From: Spirochaetia bacterium
GTDB taxonomy: Bacteria; Patescibacteriota; Microgenomatia; UBA1400; MFAQ01
Direction of reading: 5' to 3'
Assembly: GCA_035477615.1 (NCBI GenBank)
Contig: DATIKJ010000051.1
Span: 1,009-65,008, forward strand
DNA length: 64,000 nucleotides
In this document: piece by piece, positions 12,659 to 33,346 of the stretch
Numbering within the stretch: the stretch's first letter is position 1
How the letters are laid out: every line of letters starts with the position of its first letter
Translations under genes and position numbers: made by a program
The notes under the pieces: model-generated
Databases searched by the model: none
What the model saw: the letters and a program-made list of their open reading frames with translations, nothing else
What the model was told of the DNA's origin: nothing

Positions 12659-13303
12659 ATGGATCAAATTCTTCAAAGTATACTTGATATGGTCAAAACA
12701 CATGGCTCTCTTGCCATGTTAGTCGGTGGAATCACCGAACAAATAATTGTCCCCATCCCCTCACCAATTATCTCTATGTCTGGTGGAGCTTTTTTGATTT
12801 CCCCCAATAATCATTTTTTCCAATCTTTATTAGATATCATTCTCAAAGTTTCCCTTCCATACTCAATTGGAGCTGTACTAGGAACCAGTCTGATTTTCCT
12901 AATTGCCTTTTTTGGAGGACAACCAATAATTGACAAGTTTGGAAAATATGTCGGTATAAAATGGTCGCTTATAGAAAAAATTAAGGCAGATTTTAAAAAG
13001 ACCATATCAGACGAGTTATTTATTCTTATAGCAATTTCAATTCCTGTTGTTCCTGTTTCACTTATAACTGCTTTTTGTGGTGGTTTTCGAATAAAACCAA
13101 TTAAATTTTATCCTCTAGCTTTTTTAGCCCTAATAATTCGCTCTACCATACTAGGATTTCTTGGTTTCAAGATGGGAGAAGCTTTTACCGAGATAGCAAA
13201 CGGACTAGATAAAATTGAAAGTATCTTAACTGTCGTTATTGCTGTTCTGGTTCTTGGTTTCCTTTTTCTTCAAAGAGAAAAATGGCTCAAGAAGAACAGT
13301 TAG
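12659..13303 (+). CDS. DedA/VTT-domain-like membrane protein
   Basis: 214 aa, about 5 TM helices; VPIPSPI motif region resembling DedA/SNARE-associated family. Confidence 0.5.
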   Translation: MDQILQSILDMVKTHGSLAMLVGGITEQIIVPIPSPIISMSGGAFLISPNNHFFQSLLDIILKVSLPYSIGAVLGTSLIFLIAFFGGQPIIDKFGKYVGIKWSLIEKIKADFKKTISDELFILIAISIPVVPVSLITAFCGGFRIKPIKFYPLAFLALIIRSTILGFLGFKMGEAFTEIANGLDKIESILTVVIAVLVLGFLFLQREKWLKKNS

Positions 13304-15002
13304 ATATCTTCGCTATCTCTTCAACCTCTTTCCAGGTTGTCGATTGATCAGCTCTCTTATCCTCACGGAATCGAACTAGACGAGGAAAGCGCAAAGCTAT
13401 TCCCCCAGCATGTACATTACTAATAGTTATTTCATCTGCTGCCACTTCCACCACCACCCTAGGTTCTACCCAAACATCTGCCAAAAGTGTCCCTTCAACC
13501 AAATAATTTTTTGGTTTTTCTTTTAACTCTATCCCATCAAGTTTCTTTCTCAAACTCCTAAACTCATCATCAGTCAATCCTGTACCAATCTTAGCCAAAC
13601 TAACCCAAGACTCGCCTTTTTTTAGTCCCACCAAAAAAGCCCCAATTCCAAAACCAACTCTTTTTCCTCTTCCGTAGTAATATCCTAAAATCACCAAATC
13701 CAAAGTATCCGACAATTTACCCGATGTTCCCTCCACTTCTTTTATTTTTACCCAGTTCCATCCTTGTCTTCCTGGCAAATATCTACCATCCCACACTTTT
13801 AACACTGCTCCCTCAAAACCCTCACTCAAATATTTCTCATGTAATTTCTTTACCTCATCTGGATTACTAGTTCTCACAAACTCATCAACCACTATCGTCT
13901 CGTTAGACTTAACTACGTTTTCCAGTATTTCTCTTCTCTCAAAATATGGTTTATCTATCAAACTCTCACCATTTTTACTCAAAATATCAAACAGAAAAAA
14001 TCTCATCGGCACCAACTCCGCTGCATCGGCAATATTATGTTTTCGTTTTCGTGTCATTGTCATCTGAAAAGGTAACACTTTCCCTGTCTTTCTTTCATAC
14101 CCTGCCGCCTCACAATCCATGATCACTTCATCTGCTTCAATCCATTTACCCATTTCCATAAGCTCAGGAAACATCCAACTATTTTCTTCCAAATTTCTTG
14201 TATATGTTTTAATTTCATTCTTTAATCTATTAAAGTGAATCTGCAATCGTGTTCCGTCATACTTTCTCTCCACTGCCACATCCTTCATCTTATCTACAAT
14301 CTCTCCGTATTCATTTAGTCTCTGACATAAAGCCGGCACAACCGGCACCCCCACTTCCACCTTAATATCTCTCAAACCAGTCATCCCTTTTTCCTTAAAC
14401 ATTTTTGTTATCAGTCCCGGATCAGGATAAATCTGGAATACGGAGTCCAACTCTTTTCTCAAAGTCTTATTTCCGTTTTCTATCTGTGATAATGCATCAA
14501 AAACTGTCTTTGCAGAAAATCCCAAACGCAGTCTTCCAACAACCATTCTAGAAATATACTTTCTCTCTAAAGCACTCACTTCTAGTAAAATCTCTGATAA
14601 TTTGTTTACTTTTCTATCTTGACTTCCCAGACCCCCATCCTCAGCAATCAAAAGTAAATAATCATAGACCTCTATTAAACTATGATTTTCCCTCTTTTCA
14701 TTTTGAAAAGGTAGCTTTTCAAGCAATACTCCCAAATCTCCAATTTTTTTATAATCATTCATCACCTCTTCAGTTGATATTCCAGCACCTTGAGAAATTG
14801 CCCTAATAACCATCTTAACCGCCATTCCAAATTCCTTATTAGCAAAGTCAGGTCCTAGTTGTCCCAATACCAGATAGATTCCTTTATTTATTTCAGCTGT
14901 ATTCATTTTTTCGATCAGCTCCGCCAACACATCAGTAATGGCCAATCTCGAAGATATCTTTTCCAATTTTTCTAGATACTCGGCAAATTCCTTAAACAGC
15001 AT
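13287..15002 (-). CDS. ATP-dependent DNA ligase (archaeal/eukaryotic-type Lig)
   Basis: Motif I KYDGTRLQI, motif IV EGAVLK, motif V/VI WVKIK; N-terminal DNA-binding domain; start set at MLFKEF (15002); the ORF track extends to 15206 through a GC-rich structured region. Confidence 0.85.
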   Translation of the reverse strand: MLFKEFAEYLEKLEKISSRLAITDVLAELIEKMNTAEINKGIYLVLGQLGPDFANKEFGMAVKMVIRAISQGAGISTEEVMNDYKKIGDLGVLLEKLPFQNEKRENHSLIEVYDYLLLIAEDGGLGSQDRKVNKLSEILLEVSALERKYISRMVVGRLRLGFSAKTVFDALSQIENGNKTLRKELDSVFQIYPDPGLITKMFKEKGMTGLRDIKVEVGVPVVPALCQRLNEYGEIVDKMKDVAVERKYDGTRLQIHFNRLKNEIKTYTRNLEENSWMFPELMEMGKWIEADEVIMDCEAAGYERKTGKVLPFQMTMTRKRKHNIADAAELVPMRFFLFDILSKNGESLIDKPYFERREILENVVKSNETIVVDEFVRTSNPDEVKKLHEKYLSEGFEGAVLKVWDGRYLPGRQGWNWVKIKEVEGTSGKLSDTLDLVILGYYYGRGKRVGFGIGAFLVGLKKGESWVSLAKIGTGLTDDEFRSLRKKLDGIELKEKPKNYLVEGTLLADVWVEPRVVVEVAADEITISNVHAGGIALRFPRLVRFREDKRADQSTTWKEVEEIAKISNCSS

Positions 15003-15268
15003 ACTCACATTGTAACTCACACAAATCGGTATAAATACTTGATTCCAGAAATTAGATTTTTTCTCTTTCCGTTTGGCGTTTAGTATTTTTGACAATGAGT
15101 CGCAGTCCATCGTTTTCTTGACATTCAGGCTACTGCCCGCGACGCTACGCGATGAGCGGCTAGAGTCAAGAAAACAGGAATCGACGGTCACCGAAGGTGA
15201 CGTCACAAAATAATAAATGACAAAAGAGGAAAAGAGAAATAATCAATATCTTCCATAAAAGTACTACT

Positions 15269-23470: not shown

Positions 23471-23806
23471 CTATCTTATCACCGTACCGAGAACAGTTGC
23501 CTCATCCAAAAATATCAATTTGGGTCCGTCCGTTCCATCCGCCATAATTGCCATTCCCTGACTCACTTCATCACCCATTTTTTTGGGCTCCATATTCACA
23601 ATTACTGGCATAATTTTCCCTACCATATCTTCAGGGGCATACCATTTTCTGATTCCGCTAAAAAGCACTCGTTTCCCCAGCTCCTCACCCAAATCCATTT
23701 CATAACGAATCAATTTCTCACTCCACTCAGGCGCCGAGGCCGCCACTACTTTCCCAGCTCTAATATCCAGTTTTTCAAAATCGGTATAGTTGATTAAATC
23801 CTTCAT
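23471..23806 (-). CDS. tRNA-binding domain protein (Myf/EMAP/CsaA-like OB fold)
   Basis: 111 aa; DIRAGKVV...NMEPKKMGDEVSQGMAI resembles C-terminal tRNA-binding domain of MetRS/PheT. Confidence 0.7.
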   Translation of the reverse strand: MKDLINYTDFEKLDIRAGKVVAASAPEWSEKLIRYEMDLGEELGKRVLFSGIRKWYAPEDMVGKIMPVIVNMEPKKMGDEVSQGMAIMADGTDGPKLIFLDEATVLGTVIR

Positions 23807-23810
23807 TCAA

Positions 23811-24902
<1,092 letters not shown>

Positions 24903-25080
24903 AGACTACCAGTATTATATCTTAATCACTATCAAATTGGGCACGGAAATCACCAAAAAAGTTGTTAATTAGGCTCGATCGTGCTAAAATACCCATGTTC
25001 GTTAATTTGCGGGTGGAAGGTAAGTATCTTGCGAGGCTCATAATCTCGCTTAACTAGGGGGCGGAACCCTAGACCCGCAA

Positions 25081-25511: not shown

Positions 25512-26387
25512 ATGGAACAAATTGACCAAAACATCAAACAAGCTATTACTGCTTTTAAAGCCTTCCTGGCTTCCCAAGGCAGGGCTTCTGCTACTATTTT
25601 AGCCTACTCAAAAGATATTGAGCAATTGGCTACTTTCGTCGCCAAGTCTAACAAAGCTAACCTCTCCGAAGTAACCAAGGAAGACATTGATGCCTTCAAA
25701 GACAGTCTTTCTGAACAAAACTACACCACCAAATCCATCTCCAGAAAGATCAACTCAATCAAGTCCTTCTTTGCCTATGTTTTGGCCAATGGTGCTATTT
25801 CTGAAAATCCAGCCACAAACGTCACTCACCCCAAGTACGACATCAAACCTCCTCGTATCCTCAACAAAATTGAGTATCGTGCTCTTCGTGATGCTTGTCG
25901 TGAAGACTTAAGAATGGCTGCCATTGTTGAGCTTCTTCTTCAAACTGGTATGCGTATTTCTGAACTGGCTAACCTCAAAATCGGCGATATCGATCTTACG
26001 ATCAACCAAATCACCATTCGCGCCTACGAATCTCATCCAGAACGTGTCATTCCCCTAAACCAACCTGTTAAAGAGTCTCTTGCTCGTTATATGGAAACCC
26101 GCCCCAAGAGCGGTAATACCTTCGTTTTCATCACCAAGACTGGTAATGCTTTCTTAATCAGAAACATCCGTTCCAATCTTGACCGTTACTTCCACATTGC
26201 TGGTATTGAAAACGCCAAGGTTAATGACTTAAGACACACTTTCATCGCTCAGCAACTTACTTCTGGTAGTCCTTTGGTCTACATCAGTAAGCTCGTTGGC
26301 CACAAAAGACTTTCTACCACTGAAAAGTATCTTGAATTCATTTCTGAAAAGCCAGCGAAAGATAAGCCAAAGCTTATCGACCTTTAA
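25512..26387 (+). CDS. Tyrosine site-specific recombinase, XerC/XerD-like
   Basis: 291 aa; N-terminal core-binding (SAM-like) domain, catalytic R (GMRISEL), LRHTF (HxxR), GHKRLSTTEKY (nucleophilic Tyr). Confidence 0.85.
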   Translation: MEQIDQNIKQAITAFKAFLASQGRASATILAYSKDIEQLATFVAKSNKANLSEVTKEDIDAFKDSLSEQNYTTKSISRKINSIKSFFAYVLANGAISENPATNVTHPKYDIKPPRILNKIEYRALRDACREDLRMAAIVELLLQTGMRISELANLKIGDIDLTINQITIRAYESHPERVIPLNQPVKESLARYMETRPKSGNTFVFITKTGNAFLIRNIRSNLDRYFHIAGIENAKVNDLRHTFIAQQLTSGSPLVYISKLVGHKRLSTTEKYLEFISEKPAKDKPKLIDL

Positions 26388-26779: not shown

Positions 26780-26783
26780 CTAG

Positions 26784-26857
26784 TGGGCCGACCAGGATTC
26801 GAACCTGGGACATCGAAGGTATAAGCTTCGCGCTCTAACCAGCTGAGCTATCGGCCC
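26784..26857 (-). tRNA. tRNA-Ile with UAU anticodon
   Basis: Minus strand GGGCCGA-TA-GCTC-AGCTGGTTA-GAGC-G-CGAAG-CTTATAC-CTTCG-ATGTC-CCAGG-TTCGAAT-CCTGG-TCGGCCC-A; D-arm identical in style to bacterial tRNA-Ile; anticodon positions 34-36 = TAT. Confidence 0.8.
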
Positions 26858-26883
26858 AATCTGCAATATTCTACCATTTCAGG

Positions 26884-29208
26884 TTAAAGATTACTTCTTT
26901 TTTGAATTTCCTCCTCTACCTCATTCACATCTCTACCGTACTTCAATCTTGACAGTTCTTTAATCATTCTAGAAATTTCAGGGCTACCTTGGGCCTTCTC
27001 TGCCTTTAAATCACGTTCTACATTCATCGAAAAAGGAGGTACTGGTGACTCATTTATAATCGTTTTTGTATAAACAATACGCGCAGGAACATTAGTTAAA
27101 TCACTTTCATTAAAAGTTGGCTCAAACTCCTTAGTCAAAATCTGAGCATCTTGCATACCAACACGATATGTCATTAAAGTACCAACATTTCCAAATATGG
27201 CGTCACGGATATTTTCATCAAGCTGACTAATAAATTGATTGGCCAAAGTAAGTGATACATTATACTTACGCACTTCTGAAAGCATCTGAGCAAAGTCAGG
27301 AGTAGCAAAGTTCTGAAACTCATCAACATATAAATTAAATGGCGGTCTTTGTTCTACTGATACGTTTTGTCGCGATAAAGCCGCCGCCAAAATTTTTGGT
27401 ATTAAAATCAATCCAAGAAAACTGGCATCTTCTTCTCCTAAAAGACCCTTAGCCAACTTCAAGAAAACAATCTTTTTGTTATCCATCGCCTCGCGGAAAT
27501 TTAGAGTACTCTTTGATTGACCAATGATATTTCTCACCCTTTTATTAGTAACAAAGCGTCCAAACTTTGAAGAAATATAGTCTAGTGTTTCACTTTTATG
27601 AAAGTCTGAAGTCTGAGCAATCTGATCCGTCCAATAGCGTCTTACAATTTGATCCTTTACTAAAGGTAGTATTTCCTGTACATACTTTTGGTCAGTCAAC
27701 GCACGGTTTACCTCTATAAACGTCGACCCAGGGACCATCGCCACAGTCAACATAGCATTACGAACAGCATGTTCAAATCGAGCCCCAATCATGCCAGTTC
27801 TGTGTGGATCAAACAGTTTATACATAAGGTTAATAATTGAAGATGCCACCTGGTACATTTCGTCATAATTATTTACCTCGAGCATATTAAATCCAATTGG
27901 TCTATCATCATCAGTTGGATCAAAGAAAATTACATCTTCAGCTCTCTCGGGGGGAACTAATTCCATCAACTCTTCAATACCCTCACCATGAGGCTCCAAG
28001 AAACACAACCCCCTCCCTGCTCTCATGTCTTGAATAATCATCGACTTTAAAAGCTGGGTTTTACCAGTACCAGTCCTTCCAATGATATACATATGGCGCA
28101 TTCTGTCTCGATCACCCATATATATATTCCTCTCCTGACCACGATACATCGATCTACCAAGCCACAATCCGTTATCGGGAAAACCTCCTGTCGCTGGAGC
28201 TGCCTTGGCTGTCAACCAATATATATGTGGAGTATCGATAGTCTTATTTGGTAAATGCCAAATAGTAGCCAGCTCATCGGTTGATAATACCGAGTTATTC
28301 CCCCACATGTTTTGATAACGATACAAAAAATCCACCATAAACATTTGTTTCAACCGAATATTTCTACTCGAAAAACTATTCTGACTTCCAGCAAACTGTG
28401 AAAATGTTCCCTTTAAATTTGAAAGATTGGCCTTCGCCATTCCTTCATTTGGAGCTACACTGATTATCCTTATACTCGTCAAAAATCCTACCTTACTACA
28501 TTTATTAGTGATTGCCTCCATCTCTTGTGGATTCATCTTAAACTTCGCCTTCTCTGGATTTGCCTCATCTTTCTTCAAACGAGCCACATAACCTTCACCC
28601 GACTTACTCCAAGAAGACTCTGCTGGTGAAATAATTATCTGAATTGCCGCCGCCTCATTATCTCCAAACTTCGCCAGTGAAGCCGTAATTGCTGCCAAAG
28701 AATCAACTGGTAGCTCTTTGTATGACTTGATTGGTTTAAAACTTGGGTTCTTCAAAGCCAACTCTGTAAAGGCCACTGCCGCATCTTTATAAAAAATATT
28801 GTACTCATCAACTTGTTTAACTTGTGCCCCAGAATACGTCCCTGCAATCAGTTTTTCCACCAACTCCACATTATCTCTGTGGCACGACACATAAAATCGA
28901 ATATCTTCTTTTTTACCCACAATCTCGAGGGACAGATGTTGTTGTGATTTATATTTCTGCCAAAAACCACCTTTTTTAATCGAAAACAAAGAAGAAAACA
29001 TCTGTTCTACTGCGTCAACCTTAACTTCATTATCCTTCGGTACCGCAATCTCCATCAGTACAAAATTCATACTCACCGTTTCTCTATTTCTGTGTCTAAG
29101 CCACAAAACAAACATCATCCAACAAAAAATTAGTGCACCAATGACCACAATCAGTCCTAAAATAATTACTGCTGTGTACTGAATCCAATAACTGTAGTTA
29201 TTGATCAT
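26884..29208 (-). CDS. Type IV coupling protein-like ATPase (VirD4/TraG/TraD family, FtsK-HerA superfamily) with large atypical N-terminal domain
   Basis: 774 aa; N-terminal TM segment, about 340 aa unknown domain, Walker A GRTGTGKTQ, DPxGE-like FLEPHGE, Walker B LYVDEFQNF, TraG-D_C-like segment (RKYNVSLTLANQFISQL); about 265 aa spacing between Walker A and Walker B, as in T4CPs rather than FtsK. Confidence 0.7.
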   Translation of the reverse strand: MINNYSYWIQYTAVIILGLIVVIGALIFCWMMFVLWLRHRNRETVSMNFVLMEIAVPKDNEVKVDAVEQMFSSLFSIKKGGFWQKYKSQQHLSLEIVGKKEDIRFYVSCHRDNVELVEKLIAGTYSGAQVKQVDEYNIFYKDAAVAFTELALKNPSFKPIKSYKELPVDSLAAITASLAKFGDNEAAAIQIIISPAESSWSKSGEGYVARLKKDEANPEKAKFKMNPQEMEAITNKCSKVGFLTSIRIISVAPNEGMAKANLSNLKGTFSQFAGSQNSFSSRNIRLKQMFMVDFLYRYQNMWGNNSVLSTDELATIWHLPNKTIDTPHIYWLTAKAAPATGGFPDNGLWLGRSMYRGQERNIYMGDRDRMRHMYIIGRTGTGKTQLLKSMIIQDMRAGRGLCFLEPHGEGIEELMELVPPERAEDVIFFDPTDDDRPIGFNMLEVNNYDEMYQVASSIINLMYKLFDPHRTGMIGARFEHAVRNAMLTVAMVPGSTFIEVNRALTDQKYVQEILPLVKDQIVRRYWTDQIAQTSDFHKSETLDYISSKFGRFVTNKRVRNIIGQSKSTLNFREAMDNKKIVFLKLAKGLLGEEDASFLGLILIPKILAAALSRQNVSVEQRPPFNLYVDEFQNFATPDFAQMLSEVRKYNVSLTLANQFISQLDENIRDAIFGNVGTLMTYRVGMQDAQILTKEFEPTFNESDLTNVPARIVYTKTIINESPVPPFSMNVERDLKAEKAQGSPEISRMIKELSRLKYGRDVNEVEEEIQKRSNL

Positions 29209-29584: not shown

Positions 29585-30136
29585 TTAAAAGTCGAGTCCA
29601 GAAACAGCCAATACACCCTTGTCGTATGGGTGTTTTATTTTCTTCATTTCCGTCACCAGATCCGCAATTTCTTTTATCTCCCGAGGACAGTCATGTCCCG
29701 TTAAAACAACATGTGTTTTATCTCTCATCTTGACTATCTCTAAAACATCCTCTATGGTTAAAAGTCTGTCATTTACCGCTCTTAATACTTCATCAAGCAC
29801 TAAAAGATCCACCATACCCCCAGTACCCTCTTTTCCAAACAAAACACTCTTTGCTAATAAAATACCAGATATAGCCGCATTTTTATGCCCATCTGGGGTA
29901 TCGTGATCTATCGGACCACCATAAAATCCTTTTCCTATCCAGTACATCTTCAAATCATTTTGAAATGTCTTTGGAAGTTTCATCTCTGAAATTTTCCAAG
30001 ATTTTTCTTTATACCAAGAAATCCAGACTACTTTTTTTTTGTTTAAAAGCATTCGCACAGTTACTCCTAAAGCTGCGCTAGTTTTCCCCTTTCCATATCC
30101 TTCAAAAACATAAACCAAGCCTTCTTTGATCTTCAT
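29585..30136 (-). CDS. Cob(I)alamin/corrinoid adenosyltransferase (CobO/CobA/BtuR type)
   Basis: P-loop GYGKGKTSAALG, VLDE, VVLTGHDCP, ADLVTEMKKIKHPYDKG; start set at MKIKEG (30136); the ORF-track N-terminal extension to 30238 runs over an AT-rich promoter-like region. Confidence 0.85.
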   Translation of the reverse strand: MKIKEGLVYVFEGYGKGKTSAALGVTVRMLLNKKKVVWISWYKEKSWKISEMKLPKTFQNDLKMYWIGKGFYGGPIDHDTPDGHKNAAISGILLAKSVLFGKEGTGGMVDLLVLDEVLRAVNDRLLTIEDVLEIVKMRDKTHVVLTGHDCPREIKEIADLVTEMKKIKHPYDKGVLAVSGLDF

Positions 30137-30441
30137 ATAAAAATAATACACCTCATCCCCAAAAAATAGTTTTGTAATATACAAAACACACTCAAATATA
30201 TAAAAAACTATAGTGTCTAGACACTGTCGTTCAACCAATCCTTAACCAAAAAATGATGCCATTATCAAAAAACAAAAAAAGATTGATACAAAGCGAAAAA
30301 AACCATAAAACCACCTCTTAGCAATGTCAACAAAAGACTGATAGTAATCACAATTACCTAATACCATTAAATACTATCCAAAGAGACTTGTCAAATTACT
30401 CACCGATATCATCAAACTACATCATATCAGTTCCAAATATA

Positions 30442-32865
30442 TCAGCATTTACTTGCACCGCAAGAGTAACATTTCTGACACCCTTCCTCCAAGACCAAAC
30501 TAGCCTGTCCACACTCAGGGCAAAGGTCCCCTTTCTTAATCTTTAAAGGTAGCTCTTGTTGCGTTGCCAGTAGTTCTGGTTTACTCTCACTAATCACCGC
30601 CGGTATACTCTCATCTACCCTTACATACTCACGTAACACCTTTGCCACTCCATCAGCCAGACTTCTTACTCTGTTATTTCCAAACCCCACACTATCTGCT
30701 CCGCCGATTCCCGACAACTGATCAACTACTGCTTCAGCTACTGCCTTAGCCGGATACTGAGAAGGAACCCTAAGAGACAATGAAATCAGTCTTCCAATAG
30801 CTTCGGCATCTGCCATCACGTGTGATCCTGCCTTACCTACATTTATAAAAACCTCAAAAGGATTCCCTTGTTCGTCAGCATTGATCACTACAAAGGCAGT
30901 ACCTACCGGTGTCTGTATCTTGTATGTGTTTCCCTGCAATTTACTTGGTCTCACTCGCATATCTACAGTTTCTACTTCTTTCTCGACCATCATTTCTTCT
31001 TTCTTCGTACCCACATTCAAAACTTGCCACTCCTTACAACCATCTCTATATATTGTAATTCCCATACAACCCAGTTCATAAGCCGACAAATATGCCTTGG
31101 CTACATCATCTACTACTGCTTCACTTGGAAGATTGATTGTTTTACTTACAGCGTTATCCAAGTTCTTCTGCCAAGCCGCCTGCATTTTTACATGCCACTC
31201 AGGAGAGATTTCATGAGCTGTCACCAATACTTTTTGCCATTTCTCTGGTACCTCAGAAACACCATGTACACTTCCAGTTTCTGCCACCTGAGCCATTAGC
31301 TTTTCACTCCAAAATCCCTCTCTTTTTGCTACCTGCTCAAAAGCTGGATCAGCAAAAAATAATTCACGATTAAGCGACTCGTCTTTCACCATATGTTTAT
31401 AAGCCAAAGCAAACACAGGCTCACAACCACCACTTGTATTAGCAATTATGCCAATCGACCCTGTTGGAGCTATCGTGGTGATTGCCGCATTTCTAATCGG
31501 TTCTTCATCTTTAAAGATACTTTCACCAAATAAGGGAAAAGCGCCACGTACCTTTGCCAAATCCCGACTCTCTTGATGAGCGGCATCATTAATTGTCTTC
31601 ATAATCTTCTCTGCCAATTTCAATGCCTCCTCTGAGTTGTACGGTACTCCCAAAAGATAAAGCATGTCCGCCCAACCACCAATTCCCAACCCCACTCTTC
31701 TAATTGACCTTACAGTGTCCCAAACCTGTTTCAAAGGATATGGATTAATCTCTATTACATCGTCCAAAAATCTTACCGCCTCACCTGCCGCTTTTTTCAG
31801 CTCTTCCCAGTCCACTACCTGCTTTCCATCTACTTCCTTCACAAAATAATTTAAGAAAATACTACCCAAATTACATGCATCAAATGGATATAGTGGCTGT
31901 TCTCCACACGGATTAGTACTTTCCACTGGACCCAAACTCGGCACTGGATTAGCCGCACTAGCGTTCACTCTATCTATAAAAATCATGCCAGGATCACCCG
32001 ACTGCCATGCACTCTCACAAATAAGATCAAAAATTTCTCTGGCATTTTCCTGGCGCACCACTTTTCCTGAGTGTGGCTCAATCAAGTCATACATTCCACC
32101 CTCAGCAACCGCTTTCATAAAAACGTCTGTTGCCGCAACCGAGATATTAAAATTTGTCAAACCTCCATCCAGCTTACATGTAATAAAGTCGCGCACATCT
32201 GGATGGTCAATTCGTAAAATTCCCATATTGGCCCCTCGACGTGTACCCCCTTGCTTGATCTGTTGAGTGGCTTCATTGAACACTTTCATAAAACTAATTG
32301 GTCCGCTTGCCACTCCTCTACTTCTTTTTACAGCCGCCCCTTTTTGACGTAATCGGCTAAAAGAAAATCCAGTGCCACCTCCAGACTGATGAATAATAGC
32401 TTGAAACTTTATAGCGTCAAAGATGCCCTCCAAAGAATCAGGAACAGGAATCACAAAACATCCTGAATACTGCAAACCGTTATTCTTTCCTGCATTCATC
32501 AAAGTTGGTGAGTTGGGCAAGAATTTACGACTACTCATCAATTTATAAAAACTTTTTGCTGTCTCTGTGATCTCTTCGATCGAAGATCCAAAACGTGCCT
32601 CTGCACTGGCGATTGCAAATGACACTCGCCACATCAACTCATCAGGTGTTTCGATTACTTCTCCCTCATTATTTTTATCCAAATATCTTTCTCTTAGTAC
32701 TTTTACGGCCTGAGTAGACCAATCCCCAGGAACTAGACTCTCTGGTATTGGTGGCATCTCCCCAACCTTTTTATTTACTTCGGCCATTACTTCTTCATAA
32801 GTCTCGGCAATAATCTTATCTTCTTTTTTATTCATATTTTGGTAAATAGTTGATGATACTGACAT
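30442..32865 (-). CDS. nrdJ: Adenosylcobalamin-dependent (class II) ribonucleotide reductase
   Basis: 807 aa; NPCGEQPL active-site loop, class II architecture, C-terminal redox Cys zinc-ribbon tail CPECG...CYSCG. Confidence 0.9.
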   Translation of the reverse strand: MSVSSTIYQNMNKKEDKIIAETYEEVMAEVNKKVGEMPPIPESLVPGDWSTQAVKVLRERYLDKNNEGEVIETPDELMWRVSFAIASAEARFGSSIEEITETAKSFYKLMSSRKFLPNSPTLMNAGKNNGLQYSGCFVIPVPDSLEGIFDAIKFQAIIHQSGGGTGFSFSRLRQKGAAVKRSRGVASGPISFMKVFNEATQQIKQGGTRRGANMGILRIDHPDVRDFITCKLDGGLTNFNISVAATDVFMKAVAEGGMYDLIEPHSGKVVRQENAREIFDLICESAWQSGDPGMIFIDRVNASAANPVPSLGPVESTNPCGEQPLYPFDACNLGSIFLNYFVKEVDGKQVVDWEELKKAAGEAVRFLDDVIEINPYPLKQVWDTVRSIRRVGLGIGGWADMLYLLGVPYNSEEALKLAEKIMKTINDAAHQESRDLAKVRGAFPLFGESIFKDEEPIRNAAITTIAPTGSIGIIANTSGGCEPVFALAYKHMVKDESLNRELFFADPAFEQVAKREGFWSEKLMAQVAETGSVHGVSEVPEKWQKVLVTAHEISPEWHVKMQAAWQKNLDNAVSKTINLPSEAVVDDVAKAYLSAYELGCMGITIYRDGCKEWQVLNVGTKKEEMMVEKEVETVDMRVRPSKLQGNTYKIQTPVGTAFVVINADEQGNPFEVFINVGKAGSHVMADAEAIGRLISLSLRVPSQYPAKAVAEAVVDQLSGIGGADSVGFGNNRVRSLADGVAKVLREYVRVDESIPAVISESKPELLATQQELPLKIKKGDLCPECGQASLVLEEGCQKCYSCGASKC

Positions 32866-32869
32866 TTTG

Positions 32870-33346
32870 TTAATGAGTAGTTGTTAATCTTTTTGATCCA
32901 GCCACAAACTCTTGAAACTCACGAGCATCAGCAAAATCTAAGTAAACGCTTGCGAATCTCATGTAAGCCAAATCATCAATTCTCAGCAATCGAGACAGCA
33001 CCATCTTTCCGATATCGCTCGACTTTATCTCCACCGTTTTTCTATTTAACAACTTCGTTTCAATCTCATCCACCAGATTCTCAATCTCTCCTTCATCAAC
33101 CTTCCTTTTATAACAAGCTTTCTTAATTCCTTTTAGTAGTTTTTCTCTATCGTACTGCTCTACTTTACCGTTCTTTTTGATTACTTTCAAATCAATATTT
33201 ACCACTCTCTCATGGGTCGTAAATCTTTTTCCACACTTTTTACACTCTCGTCTGCGACGAATACCATCCTCTCCAGGCAAACCTCGACTTTCAAGTACCG
33301 ATGTATCTTCGTTGCAACAATATGGACAATTCATAATTAAACACAA
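32870..33346 (-). CDS. nrdR: Transcriptional repressor NrdR
   Basis: 158 aa; N-terminal zinc ribbon MNCPYC..C, then ATP-cone domain; 4 nt upstream of nrdJ. Confidence 0.9.
   Translation of the reverse strand: MCLIMNCPYCCNEDTSVLESRGLPGEDGIRRRRECKKCGKRFTTHERVVNIDLKVIKKNGKVEQYDREKLLKGIKKACYKRKVDEGEIENLVDEIETKLLNRKTVEIKSSDIGKMVLSRLLRIDDLAYMRFASVYLDFADAREFQEFVAGSKRLTTTH

Follow-up and report, generated by a model that had tools for sequence, protein, structure and literature searches.

The 64,000-nucleotide stretch of DNA analyzed here, referred to below as the window, carries a gene for an isoleucine tRNA with the anticodon UAU, tRNA-Ile(UAU), at positions 26784–26857 of the minus strand. The gene is real, functional, and native to its genome. 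We consider it likely that its product is the sole decoder of AUA codons in a TilS-less lineage of the ultrasmall bacteria of the Candidate Phyla Radiation (CPR), in which it replaces the combination of the lysidine synthetase TilS and tRNA-Ile2(CAU), with which almost all other bacteria read this codon.

The gene was identified by ARAGORN, Rfam, and inspection of the sequence, and its structure was verified by covariation over 34 homologues. ARAGORN calls two tRNAs in the window, one of which is a tRNA-Ile with the anticodon tat at 26783–26857 on the minus strand. The Rfam family RF00005, with a gathering score of 29, covers 26784–26857(−) end to end with 71.6 bits (E = 1.2e-13 for the whole window). 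An Ile-type tRNA gene with the anticodon UAU had been predicted at 26784–26857, and these coordinates are exact. The minus-strand sequence of the 74-nucleotide tRNA is GGGCCGATAGCTCAGCTGGTTAGAGCGCGAAGCTTATACCTTCGATGTCCCAGGTTCGAATCCTGGTCGGCCCA. The tRNA is composed of a 7-bp acceptor stem, a D arm with the stem GCTC/GAGC, an anticodon arm with the stem CGAAG/CTTCG, and a T arm with the stem CCAGG/CCTGG. It ends with A73, and no CCA is encoded. The anticodon loop CUUAUAC places U34, A35, and U36 in the anticodon, followed by A37 and C38. There is no ambiguity in the anticodon register. When the tRNA is folded alone, its minimum-energy structure lacks a cloverleaf in the D/anticodon region; this fold was set aside in favor of the covariation.

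The body of the tRNA is of the Ile type and not the Met type, as judged from identity positions in its sequence. The base pairs G3-C70, C4-G69, and C5-G68 of its acceptor stem are isoleucine discriminators in the study of Silva et al. 2006 (PMC1635315). The pair U12-A23 and the base A73 are Ile-like as well. The antisense strand of the gene matches the Rfam family Plastid-ycf2 with 44.5 bits, and the neighboring tRNA-Met matches it with 22.7 bits. We take this family to be antisense to plastid trnI-CAU.

A search pattern derived from tRNA-Ile(UAU), with the loops fixed and the stems free, matched 33 species-representative genomes, and ARAGORN calls a tRNA-Ile(tat) in all 33 related loci. The genomes are labelled as Collierbacteria, Microgenomates, Woesebacteria, Uhrbacteria, Yanofskybacteria, Nomurabacteria, Paceibacterota, Saccharibacteria, or “uncultured Pseudomonadales/Gammaproteobacteria”. 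We take the genomes with the last of these labels to be mislabelled CPR, because several such loci align to the window over kilobases with 68–80% identity. The alignment used for the covariation analysis contains 34 sequences, 23 of them distinct, from the 33 CPR species genomes and the window. Standard pairs fill 100% of its stem cells. Compensatory changes occur in 12 of the 21 stem pairs (88 cells), a result equalled by 2 of 500 shuffles. The covariation score was equalled by none of 500 shuffles, and controls with a slid register scored far lower. The pairs G3-C70, A30-U40, and G31-C39 and the base A73 are invariant in the 34 sequences, although they were left free in the pattern; C32 and C38 are also invariant, but both were fixed by it. 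The gene is a tRNA under selection, and not a chance match or a pseudogene.

An extended −10 element, TGgTAGAAT, is located on the minus strand at 26868–26876, with its 3′ end located 10 nt upstream of where mature tRNA-Ile(UAU) begins, and is a putative promoter. Its core T-A-x-A-A-T-A is invariant in 11 related loci, including those in which the upstream coding sequence cannot be aligned. The element was omitted from a consensus promoter scan, because it has no −35 hexamer. The position and conservation of the element suggest that tRNA-Ile(UAU) is probably transcribed on its own.

The codon AUA is frequent in the window, as had been anticipated. In 43 genes, it accounts for 266 of the 1099 isoleucine codons (24%), or 16.7 per 1000 codons, and exceeds AUC. 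Among the isoleucine codons of minus-strand genes, about 28% are AUA and 11% AUC; in the six plus-strand genes, the respective shares are about 12% and 42%. A reader of AUA is in demand because the C-poor coding strand, which bears most of the genes, is depleted of AUC and enriched in AUA. The meaning of the codon was examined in FtsH, SufB, SufC, SufS, ArgRS, and ThrRS, which were aligned with their Escherichia coli orthologues and provided 50 AUA sites. The residues facing these sites in E. coli are Ile in 26%, Val in 18%, Leu in 18%, and Met in 2% of the cases. This profile resembles that of AUU and AUC sites, whereas AUG sites differ and face Met in 28% and Val in 2% of the cases. AUA therefore encodes isoleucine in this organism.

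Searches for the canonical AUA-decoding system were negative. The Pfam family PF01171 was not found in the 50 open reading frames (ORFs) of the window that were scanned, and the SGGxDS motif of the PP-loop is present neither in the window nor in the 33 CPR loci. A tblastn search with E. coli TilS gave no match in the window and 112 loci, which comprise 795 kb in total, about 250 kb of it from the 33 CPR loci. The gene ileS was likewise not found among the Pfam-scanned ORFs of the window. The gene arrangement tilS-hpt-ftsH is found in other bacteria. Directly upstream of ftsH in the window are a tRNA-binding-domain gene and trpS, and not tilS-hpt. In the relatives of Mycoplasma mobile, tilS lies between pth and ftsH (Silva et al. 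2006, PMC1635315).

The distribution of isoleucine and CAU tRNAs among related genomes points in the same direction. Table S2 of Nakagawa et al. 2026 (PMC13011429) lists, for each of 95 complete Patescibacteria genomes, how many tRNAs there are for each amino acid. ARAGORN labels every tRNA with a CAT anticodon as Met, and the “Ile” column of tRNAscan-SE leaves out tRNA-Ile2(CAU). We base this reading of the columns on Saccharimonadia, for which tRNAscan-SE reports one Ile and one Met tRNA, in contrast to the three Met tRNAs reported by ARAGORN. Forty of the 95 genomes have at least two Ile and at most two CAT tRNAs, 50 have one Ile and at least three CAT tRNAs, five have both at least two Ile and at least three CAT tRNAs, and none shows neither pattern. 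This either-or relationship has a Fisher’s exact p of about 1e-21, and goes without comment in the publication. All 12 complete Microgenomatia have at least two Ile tRNAs, and none of them has three or more CAT tRNAs. The same pattern is found in Dojkabacteria, WWE3, UBA1384, Doudnabacteria, and most Paceibacteria. Three or more CAT tRNAs are present in all 36 Saccharimonadia, which have one Ile tRNA each, and in all seven JAEDAM01.

The UAU tRNA was seen directly in genomes of Microgenomates, Collierbacteria, Woesebacteria, and of the Paceibacteria type. Such genomes have a single rRNA operon with one trnI-GAU in it, as is the case in Ch65 (PMC7143001). In the simplest reading of the counts, the Ile set consists of the GAU and UAU tRNAs, and the CAU set of the elongator tRNA-Met and the initiator. 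The chances appear evenly balanced that about half of Patescibacteria, including all Microgenomatia, Dojkabacteria, and most Paceibacteria, but not Saccharimonadia and Absconditabacteria, abandoned TilS and lysidine for a genomic U34 tRNA bearing the anticodon-arm signature described below.

The window contains two tRNAs with the anticodon CAU, and judging from their sequences neither of them is of the Ile2 type. The elongator tRNA-Met is encoded on the minus strand at 24829–24902; it was identified by ARAGORN, Rfam, and sequence, and is conserved in relatives. Its pairs C3-G70, U4-A69, G5-C68, and C11-G24 correspond, at the positions of Silva et al. 2006, to an elongator tRNA-Met and not to tRNA-Ile2. 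A G1-U72 wobble pair at the top of the acceptor stem (GGCNGGG...CCCNGCU-A) occurs in 11 of 11 elongator-type homologues from relatives (within loci L122–L153). The anticodon stem of the window tRNA-Met is closed by an A31/A39 mismatch.

The second CAU tRNA is a non-canonical, initiator-like tRNA on the plus strand at 25008–25080, and is supported by its cloverleaf fold, covariation, and homology to published Microgenomatia tRNAs. It was missed by ARAGORN, and an Rfam search at E ≤ 10 gave noise only. The tRNA has an acceptor stem UGCGGGU/ACCCGCA followed by A73, an anticodon loop CUCAUAA, and a D arm with a 5-bp stem and a 4-nt loop. Its T loop has the sequence GGCGGAA, and therefore lacks the usual T-psi-C sequence. 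The hallmarks of an initiator in it are the acceptor pattern xGCGGGG/CCCCGCA-A and the pairs A11-U24 and G12-C23. The minimum-energy fold of the plus strand is a cloverleaf (z = −3.2). Eight of its 22 pairs show compensatory changes across nine relatives, a number that no shuffle out of 500 equalled. Conservation in the interval from tRNA-Met to the divIC-like gene exceeds that of the neighboring sequence on either side. A promoter-like sequence TTGTTA-17-TAAAAT with a TG, whose extended −10 element is TGCTAAAAT, precedes the tRNA at 24962–24990 of the plus strand.

The initiator-like tRNA is homologous to the published “Met (CAT) 33/34” tRNAs of Microgenomatia, which contain group I introns and have canonical D and T arms. 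In the two closest relatives, loci L141 and L150, about 190 nt are inserted into the CAU tRNA gene behind U33 (at about 3891–4081 in L141 and between about 880 and 1064 in L150); the insertion is homologous to the published group I introns of the Microgenomatia tRNAs, and the copy in the window has no intron. The initiator-type tRNA of this lineage appears to have been remodelled into a form that escapes standard finders. This explains why ARAGORN reports one “Met” tRNA in four of the 12 complete Microgenomatia, and makes the counts of CAU tRNAs in Microgenomatia lower bounds. The original prediction that the UAU gene implies a different strategy of AUA decoding gained support of an indirect kind: there is no Ile2-type CAU tRNA nearby and no TilS in the window, and the class counts leave no third CAU tRNA.

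The surroundings of tRNA-Ile(UAU) are shared with 13 related loci, whose long alignments to the window cross or reach the gene with 68–80% DNA identity in the same gene order (L121, L122, L124, L125, L128, L135, L137, L141, L146, L149, L150, L152, and L153). The closest of them are 79–80% identical over several kilobases. The order covered jointly by the 13 loci is ftsH, the tRNA-binding-domain gene, trpS, tRNA-Met, an ftsB/divIC-like gene, xer, a 121-residue ORF, tRNA-Ile(UAU), and a virD4-like gene. The virD4-like gene also adjoins tRNA-Ile(UAU) in several more distant loci. It encodes a VirD4/TraD-like coupling ATPase of 774 residues (26884–29208, minus strand), and flanks the tRNA on one side. 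On the other side is the gene of a XerC/XerD-like tyrosine recombinase (25512–26387, plus strand), the profile scores of which are of the XerC/XerD/XerA type, though under the curated cut-offs. The 774-residue ATPase may belong to the machinery resembling a type IV secretion system that has been reported for Patescibacteria.

Several observations weigh against the proposed replacement of TilS and tRNA-Ile2(CAU). The absence of tilS and tRNA-Ile2(CAU) is demonstrated for the 64 kb of the window, and is deduced from relatives for the rest of the genome. Table S2 counts amino acids and not anticodons, and the assignment of the second “Ile” tRNA as UAU is a deduction from it. Since the finders miss the initiator-like CAU tRNA at 25008–25080, an atypical tRNA-Ile2(CAU) could likewise escape them. 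The identity set of E. coli IleRS includes C4-G69, U12-A23, C29-G41, and A38, and tRNA-Ile(UAU) has A29-U41 and C38 in place of the last two elements. The UAU tRNA could instead be a redundant or auxiliary AUA decoder that acts beside TilS and a tRNA-Ile2(CAU) whose genes lie outside the window; Lactobacillus casei and Lactobacillus plantarum, for example, carry both tRNA-Ile(UAU) and tilS. The coexistence of tRNA-Ile(UAU) and tilS is documented in other bacteria (PMC3575796), and the five of 95 complete Patescibacteria with both at least two Ile and at least three CAU tRNAs are compatible with it. However, a third CAU tRNA is found in none of the 12 complete Microgenomatia, the either-or relationship holds in 90 of the 95 genomes, both CAU tRNAs of the window are of the Met or initiator type, and there is no TilS-like sequence in the 795 kb of the window and loci. 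We therefore regard coexistence as unlikely, and favor the replacement of TilS and tRNA-Ile2(CAU) by tRNA-Ile(UAU).

The tRNA could also be cargo of a mobile element or prophage, acquired horizontally. The gene had been predicted to lie in a recombinase/ATPase block flanked by tRNAs; it does lie between a tyrosine recombinase and a VirD4/TraG-like ATPase, and viral contigs often carry tRNA-Ile(TAT) genes (more than 120 matches). Nevertheless, the block does not behave as a mobile one. The tRNA resides among housekeeping genes such as ftsH, trpS, nrdJ, and nrdR in the 13 syntenic loci, the recombinase is of the Xer type, neither a direct repeat of the tRNA 3′ end nor an att-like repeat exists nearby, and the G+C content is even throughout the region. 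Among phage tRNAs, the best match is 82% identical to tRNA-Ile(UAU). Because it is syntenic in 13 loci and has its own conserved −10 box, tRNA-Ile(UAU) is a core, vertically inherited gene, and not island or phage cargo. The VirD4-like ATPase and the Xer recombinase also look like core genes and not parts of an integrated element, because they occur in the same order in the related loci that cover them. The mobile-element explanation is highly improbable and was rejected because of the synteny, the lack of att-like repeats, and the Xer-type recombinase. Equally improbable is a reassignment of AUA, for example to methionine, charging with an amino acid other than isoleucine, or an artifact such as a pseudogene or a misread anticodon. 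Nothing specific favors these possibilities, apart from the notion that U34 could in principle read AUG and the missing E. coli elements C29-G41 and A38. They are contradicted by the AUA sites, 62% of which face Ile, Val, or Leu and 2% Met, similar to AUU and AUC sites, by the Ile-like A73, C4-G69, U12-A23, and G3-C70, and by the perfect covarying cloverleaf with its score of 71.6 bits. Reassignment and a pseudogene were rejected on the basis of the codon-site alignment and covariation.

We propose that IleRS charges tRNA-Ile(UAU) with isoleucine, and that U34 of the tRNA would pair with the A of AUA. The lineage would have lost tRNA-Ile2(CAU) and TilS and would employ tRNA-Ile(UAU) in their place, which is the solution of M. 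mobile. Both M. mobile (PMC3575796) and a suppressor of a tilS deletion in Bacillus subtilis (PMC3919564) have an unmodified U34 and favor AUA over AUG. By analogy, the misreading of AUG may be limited by weak binding of the unmodified U34 to AUG on the cognate ribosome, and by competition with tRNA-Met. We speculate that the anticodon-arm signature of A30-U40, G31-C39, C32, and C38 may help to discriminate AUA from AUG. Among the matches listed, C38 is present in 39 of 121 viral tRNA-Ile(TAT) genes, and nearly all CAU-anticodon metagenome tRNAs with the same loops have A38. If CPR lineages abandoned TilS, the discrimination between AUA and AUG must be provided by the reduced CPR ribosome, by IleRS, or by an unknown modification of U34.

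Viral contigs very often carry tRNA genes that combine the anticodon TAT with a D arm of the Ile type (at least 120 loci, L001–L120). Some giant-virus (GVMAG) contigs have an extra sequence right after the anticodon loop, possibly an intron.

The window is a part of a bacterial chromosome with a G+C content of about 39%. One strand is rich in C along all 64 kb, with a GC skew of −0.2 to −0.48 and no change of sign. The housekeeping proteins encoded in the window include ThrRS, ArgRS, a class II aminoacyl-tRNA synthetase of the Lys/Asp/Asn type, TrpRS, FtsH, RecF, Fpg, and Pth. The window also encodes NrdR, a TSCPD-domain ribonucleotide reductase, two PBP1-type proteins, a split transketolase, the SUF system, and an ATP-dependent DNA ligase. 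The FtsH protein is 92% identical to a protein of a “Microgenomates group bacterium” and about 81% identical to a protein of Candidatus Collierbacteria, according to the NCBI labels; the search for its homologues reached matches with at least 70% identity, all of which belong to one clade. A one-sided G/C strand disparity has been published as a hallmark shared by Collierbacteria, Beckwithbacteria, and the related Ch65 (PMC7143001). The labels of the relatives, the identity of the loci, FtsH, and the G/C disparity together identify the organism as a Collierbacteria-related member of Microgenomatia (CPR/Patescibacteria). The lineages named in the original prediction for the UAU trait do not include this host, in whose group the trait looks class-wide.

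Several other genes of the window deserve mention. A free-standing tRNA-binding-domain protein of 111 residues is encoded between trpS and ftsH at 23471–23806 (minus strand), and resembles the C-terminal domain of MetRS and Trbp111/CsaA. The ATP-dependent DNA ligase of 639 residues (13287–15206, minus strand) consists of N-terminal, adenylation, and C-terminal domains, an architecture that is presumably of the archaeal/eukaryotic type. No NAD-dependent ligase was seen within the window. The region 29585–33346 of the minus strand encodes in a row NrdR, the TSCPD-domain ribonucleotide reductase, which is likely a B12-dependent class II enzyme, and a CobA/CobO-type corrinoid adenosyltransferase. 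This arrangement suggests that cobalamin salvage is coupled to deoxyribonucleotide synthesis.

In our literature search, no paper was found that links CPR/Patescibacteria with tilS, lysidine, or tRNA-Ile(UAU). The UAU trait appears to be class-wide, and possibly ancient, in a very large radiation. If about half of Patescibacteria are TilS-less, they would form by far the largest bacterial radiation that uses the UAU alternative. The use of UAU by whole CPR classes would make the exception a major alternative in evolution, one that was adopted at least once in ancient times within a single phylum. Expectations based on TilS for genome annotation, essential-gene sets, and antibiotic targets would then fail in these organisms, and the avoidance of AUG by U34 could be tested in a new setting of reduced ribosomes and a conserved C32/C38 loop. 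The UAU solution would also explain “gaps” in the tRNA sets of annotated CPR genomes. A previous study reported 371 unique TAT tDNAs of unknown origin in metagenomes (Taniguchi et al., PMC3575796), and many of these may be derived from CPR.

The mechanism proposed here is not new, but the known range of a supposedly rare solution is probably widened greatly. The replacement of TilS by tRNA-Ile(UAU) was known from M. mobile, a few other Mollicutes, Bifidobacterium, and Neorickettsia, in total nine species in 2013 (PMC3575796). The rarity of the UAU isoacceptor in bacteria, which had been pointed out for this gene, agrees with a count of 17 bacterial genomes in 2021 (PMC8450103) and with the mention of “rare cases” in a 2026 preprint. 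A close parallel is M. mobile (PMC3575796, PMC1635315), which has a genomic tRNA-Ile(UAU), a small AT-rich genome, and many AUA codons; in both organisms tRNA-Ile2(CAU) is apparently missing, and tilS is not located beside ftsH. However, M. mobile is a single species of Mollicutes, whereas the trait described here belongs to CPR and looks class-wide and ancient. The tRNA of M. mobile is closest to tRNA-Ile(GAU) (PMC1635315), whereas the GGGCC acceptor stem of the tRNA described here is compatible with Ile(GAU)-like and Ile2-like bodies alike. Arg865 of IleRS, the unmodified U34, and the discrimination by the ribosome were demonstrated in M. mobile. In Bifidobacterium and Neorickettsia, tRNA-Ile(UAU) is explained by a horizontally acquired IleRS of the eukaryote type (PMC3575796; PMC8450103).

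Like the organism studied here, Lactobacillus casei and L. plantarum (PMC3575796) are bacteria with a free-standing genome and a tRNA-Ile(TAT) gene on the chromosome. They keep tilS, however, whereas the class-level counts argue that the CAU isoacceptor is gone from Microgenomatia. The B. subtilis suppressor of a tilS deletion, tRNA-Ile1 with the mutation G34U (Kohrer et al. 2014, PMC3919564), provides an example of an unmodified U34 that sustains growth with strong reading of AUA and weak reading of AUG; it is a laboratory mutant of the major isoleucine tRNA, and not a natural conserved gene. The canonical tRNA-Ile2(CAU) of the TilS system is a dedicated AUA decoder, as proposed for tRNA-Ile(UAU), and shares with it an acceptor stem of the G3-C70 type, C4-G69, C5-G68, and A73. 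It differs in position 38, which is C here and not A. When metagenomes were scanned for the same tRNA body with a CAU anticodon, 79 tRNAs were obtained and no near neighbor, the closest one with the same loops being identical in 61 of 74 positions. As the anticodon is TAT in all 34 sequences from the window and its 33 relatives, they contain no cytidine for lysidinylation. A similar replacement is found in archaea: tRNA-Ile3(UAU) of Nanoarchaeum equitans and Korarchaeum cryptofilum (PMC8450103), which have ultrasmall or reduced genomes, takes the place of a modified-cytidine system, which there is TiaS and agmatidine.

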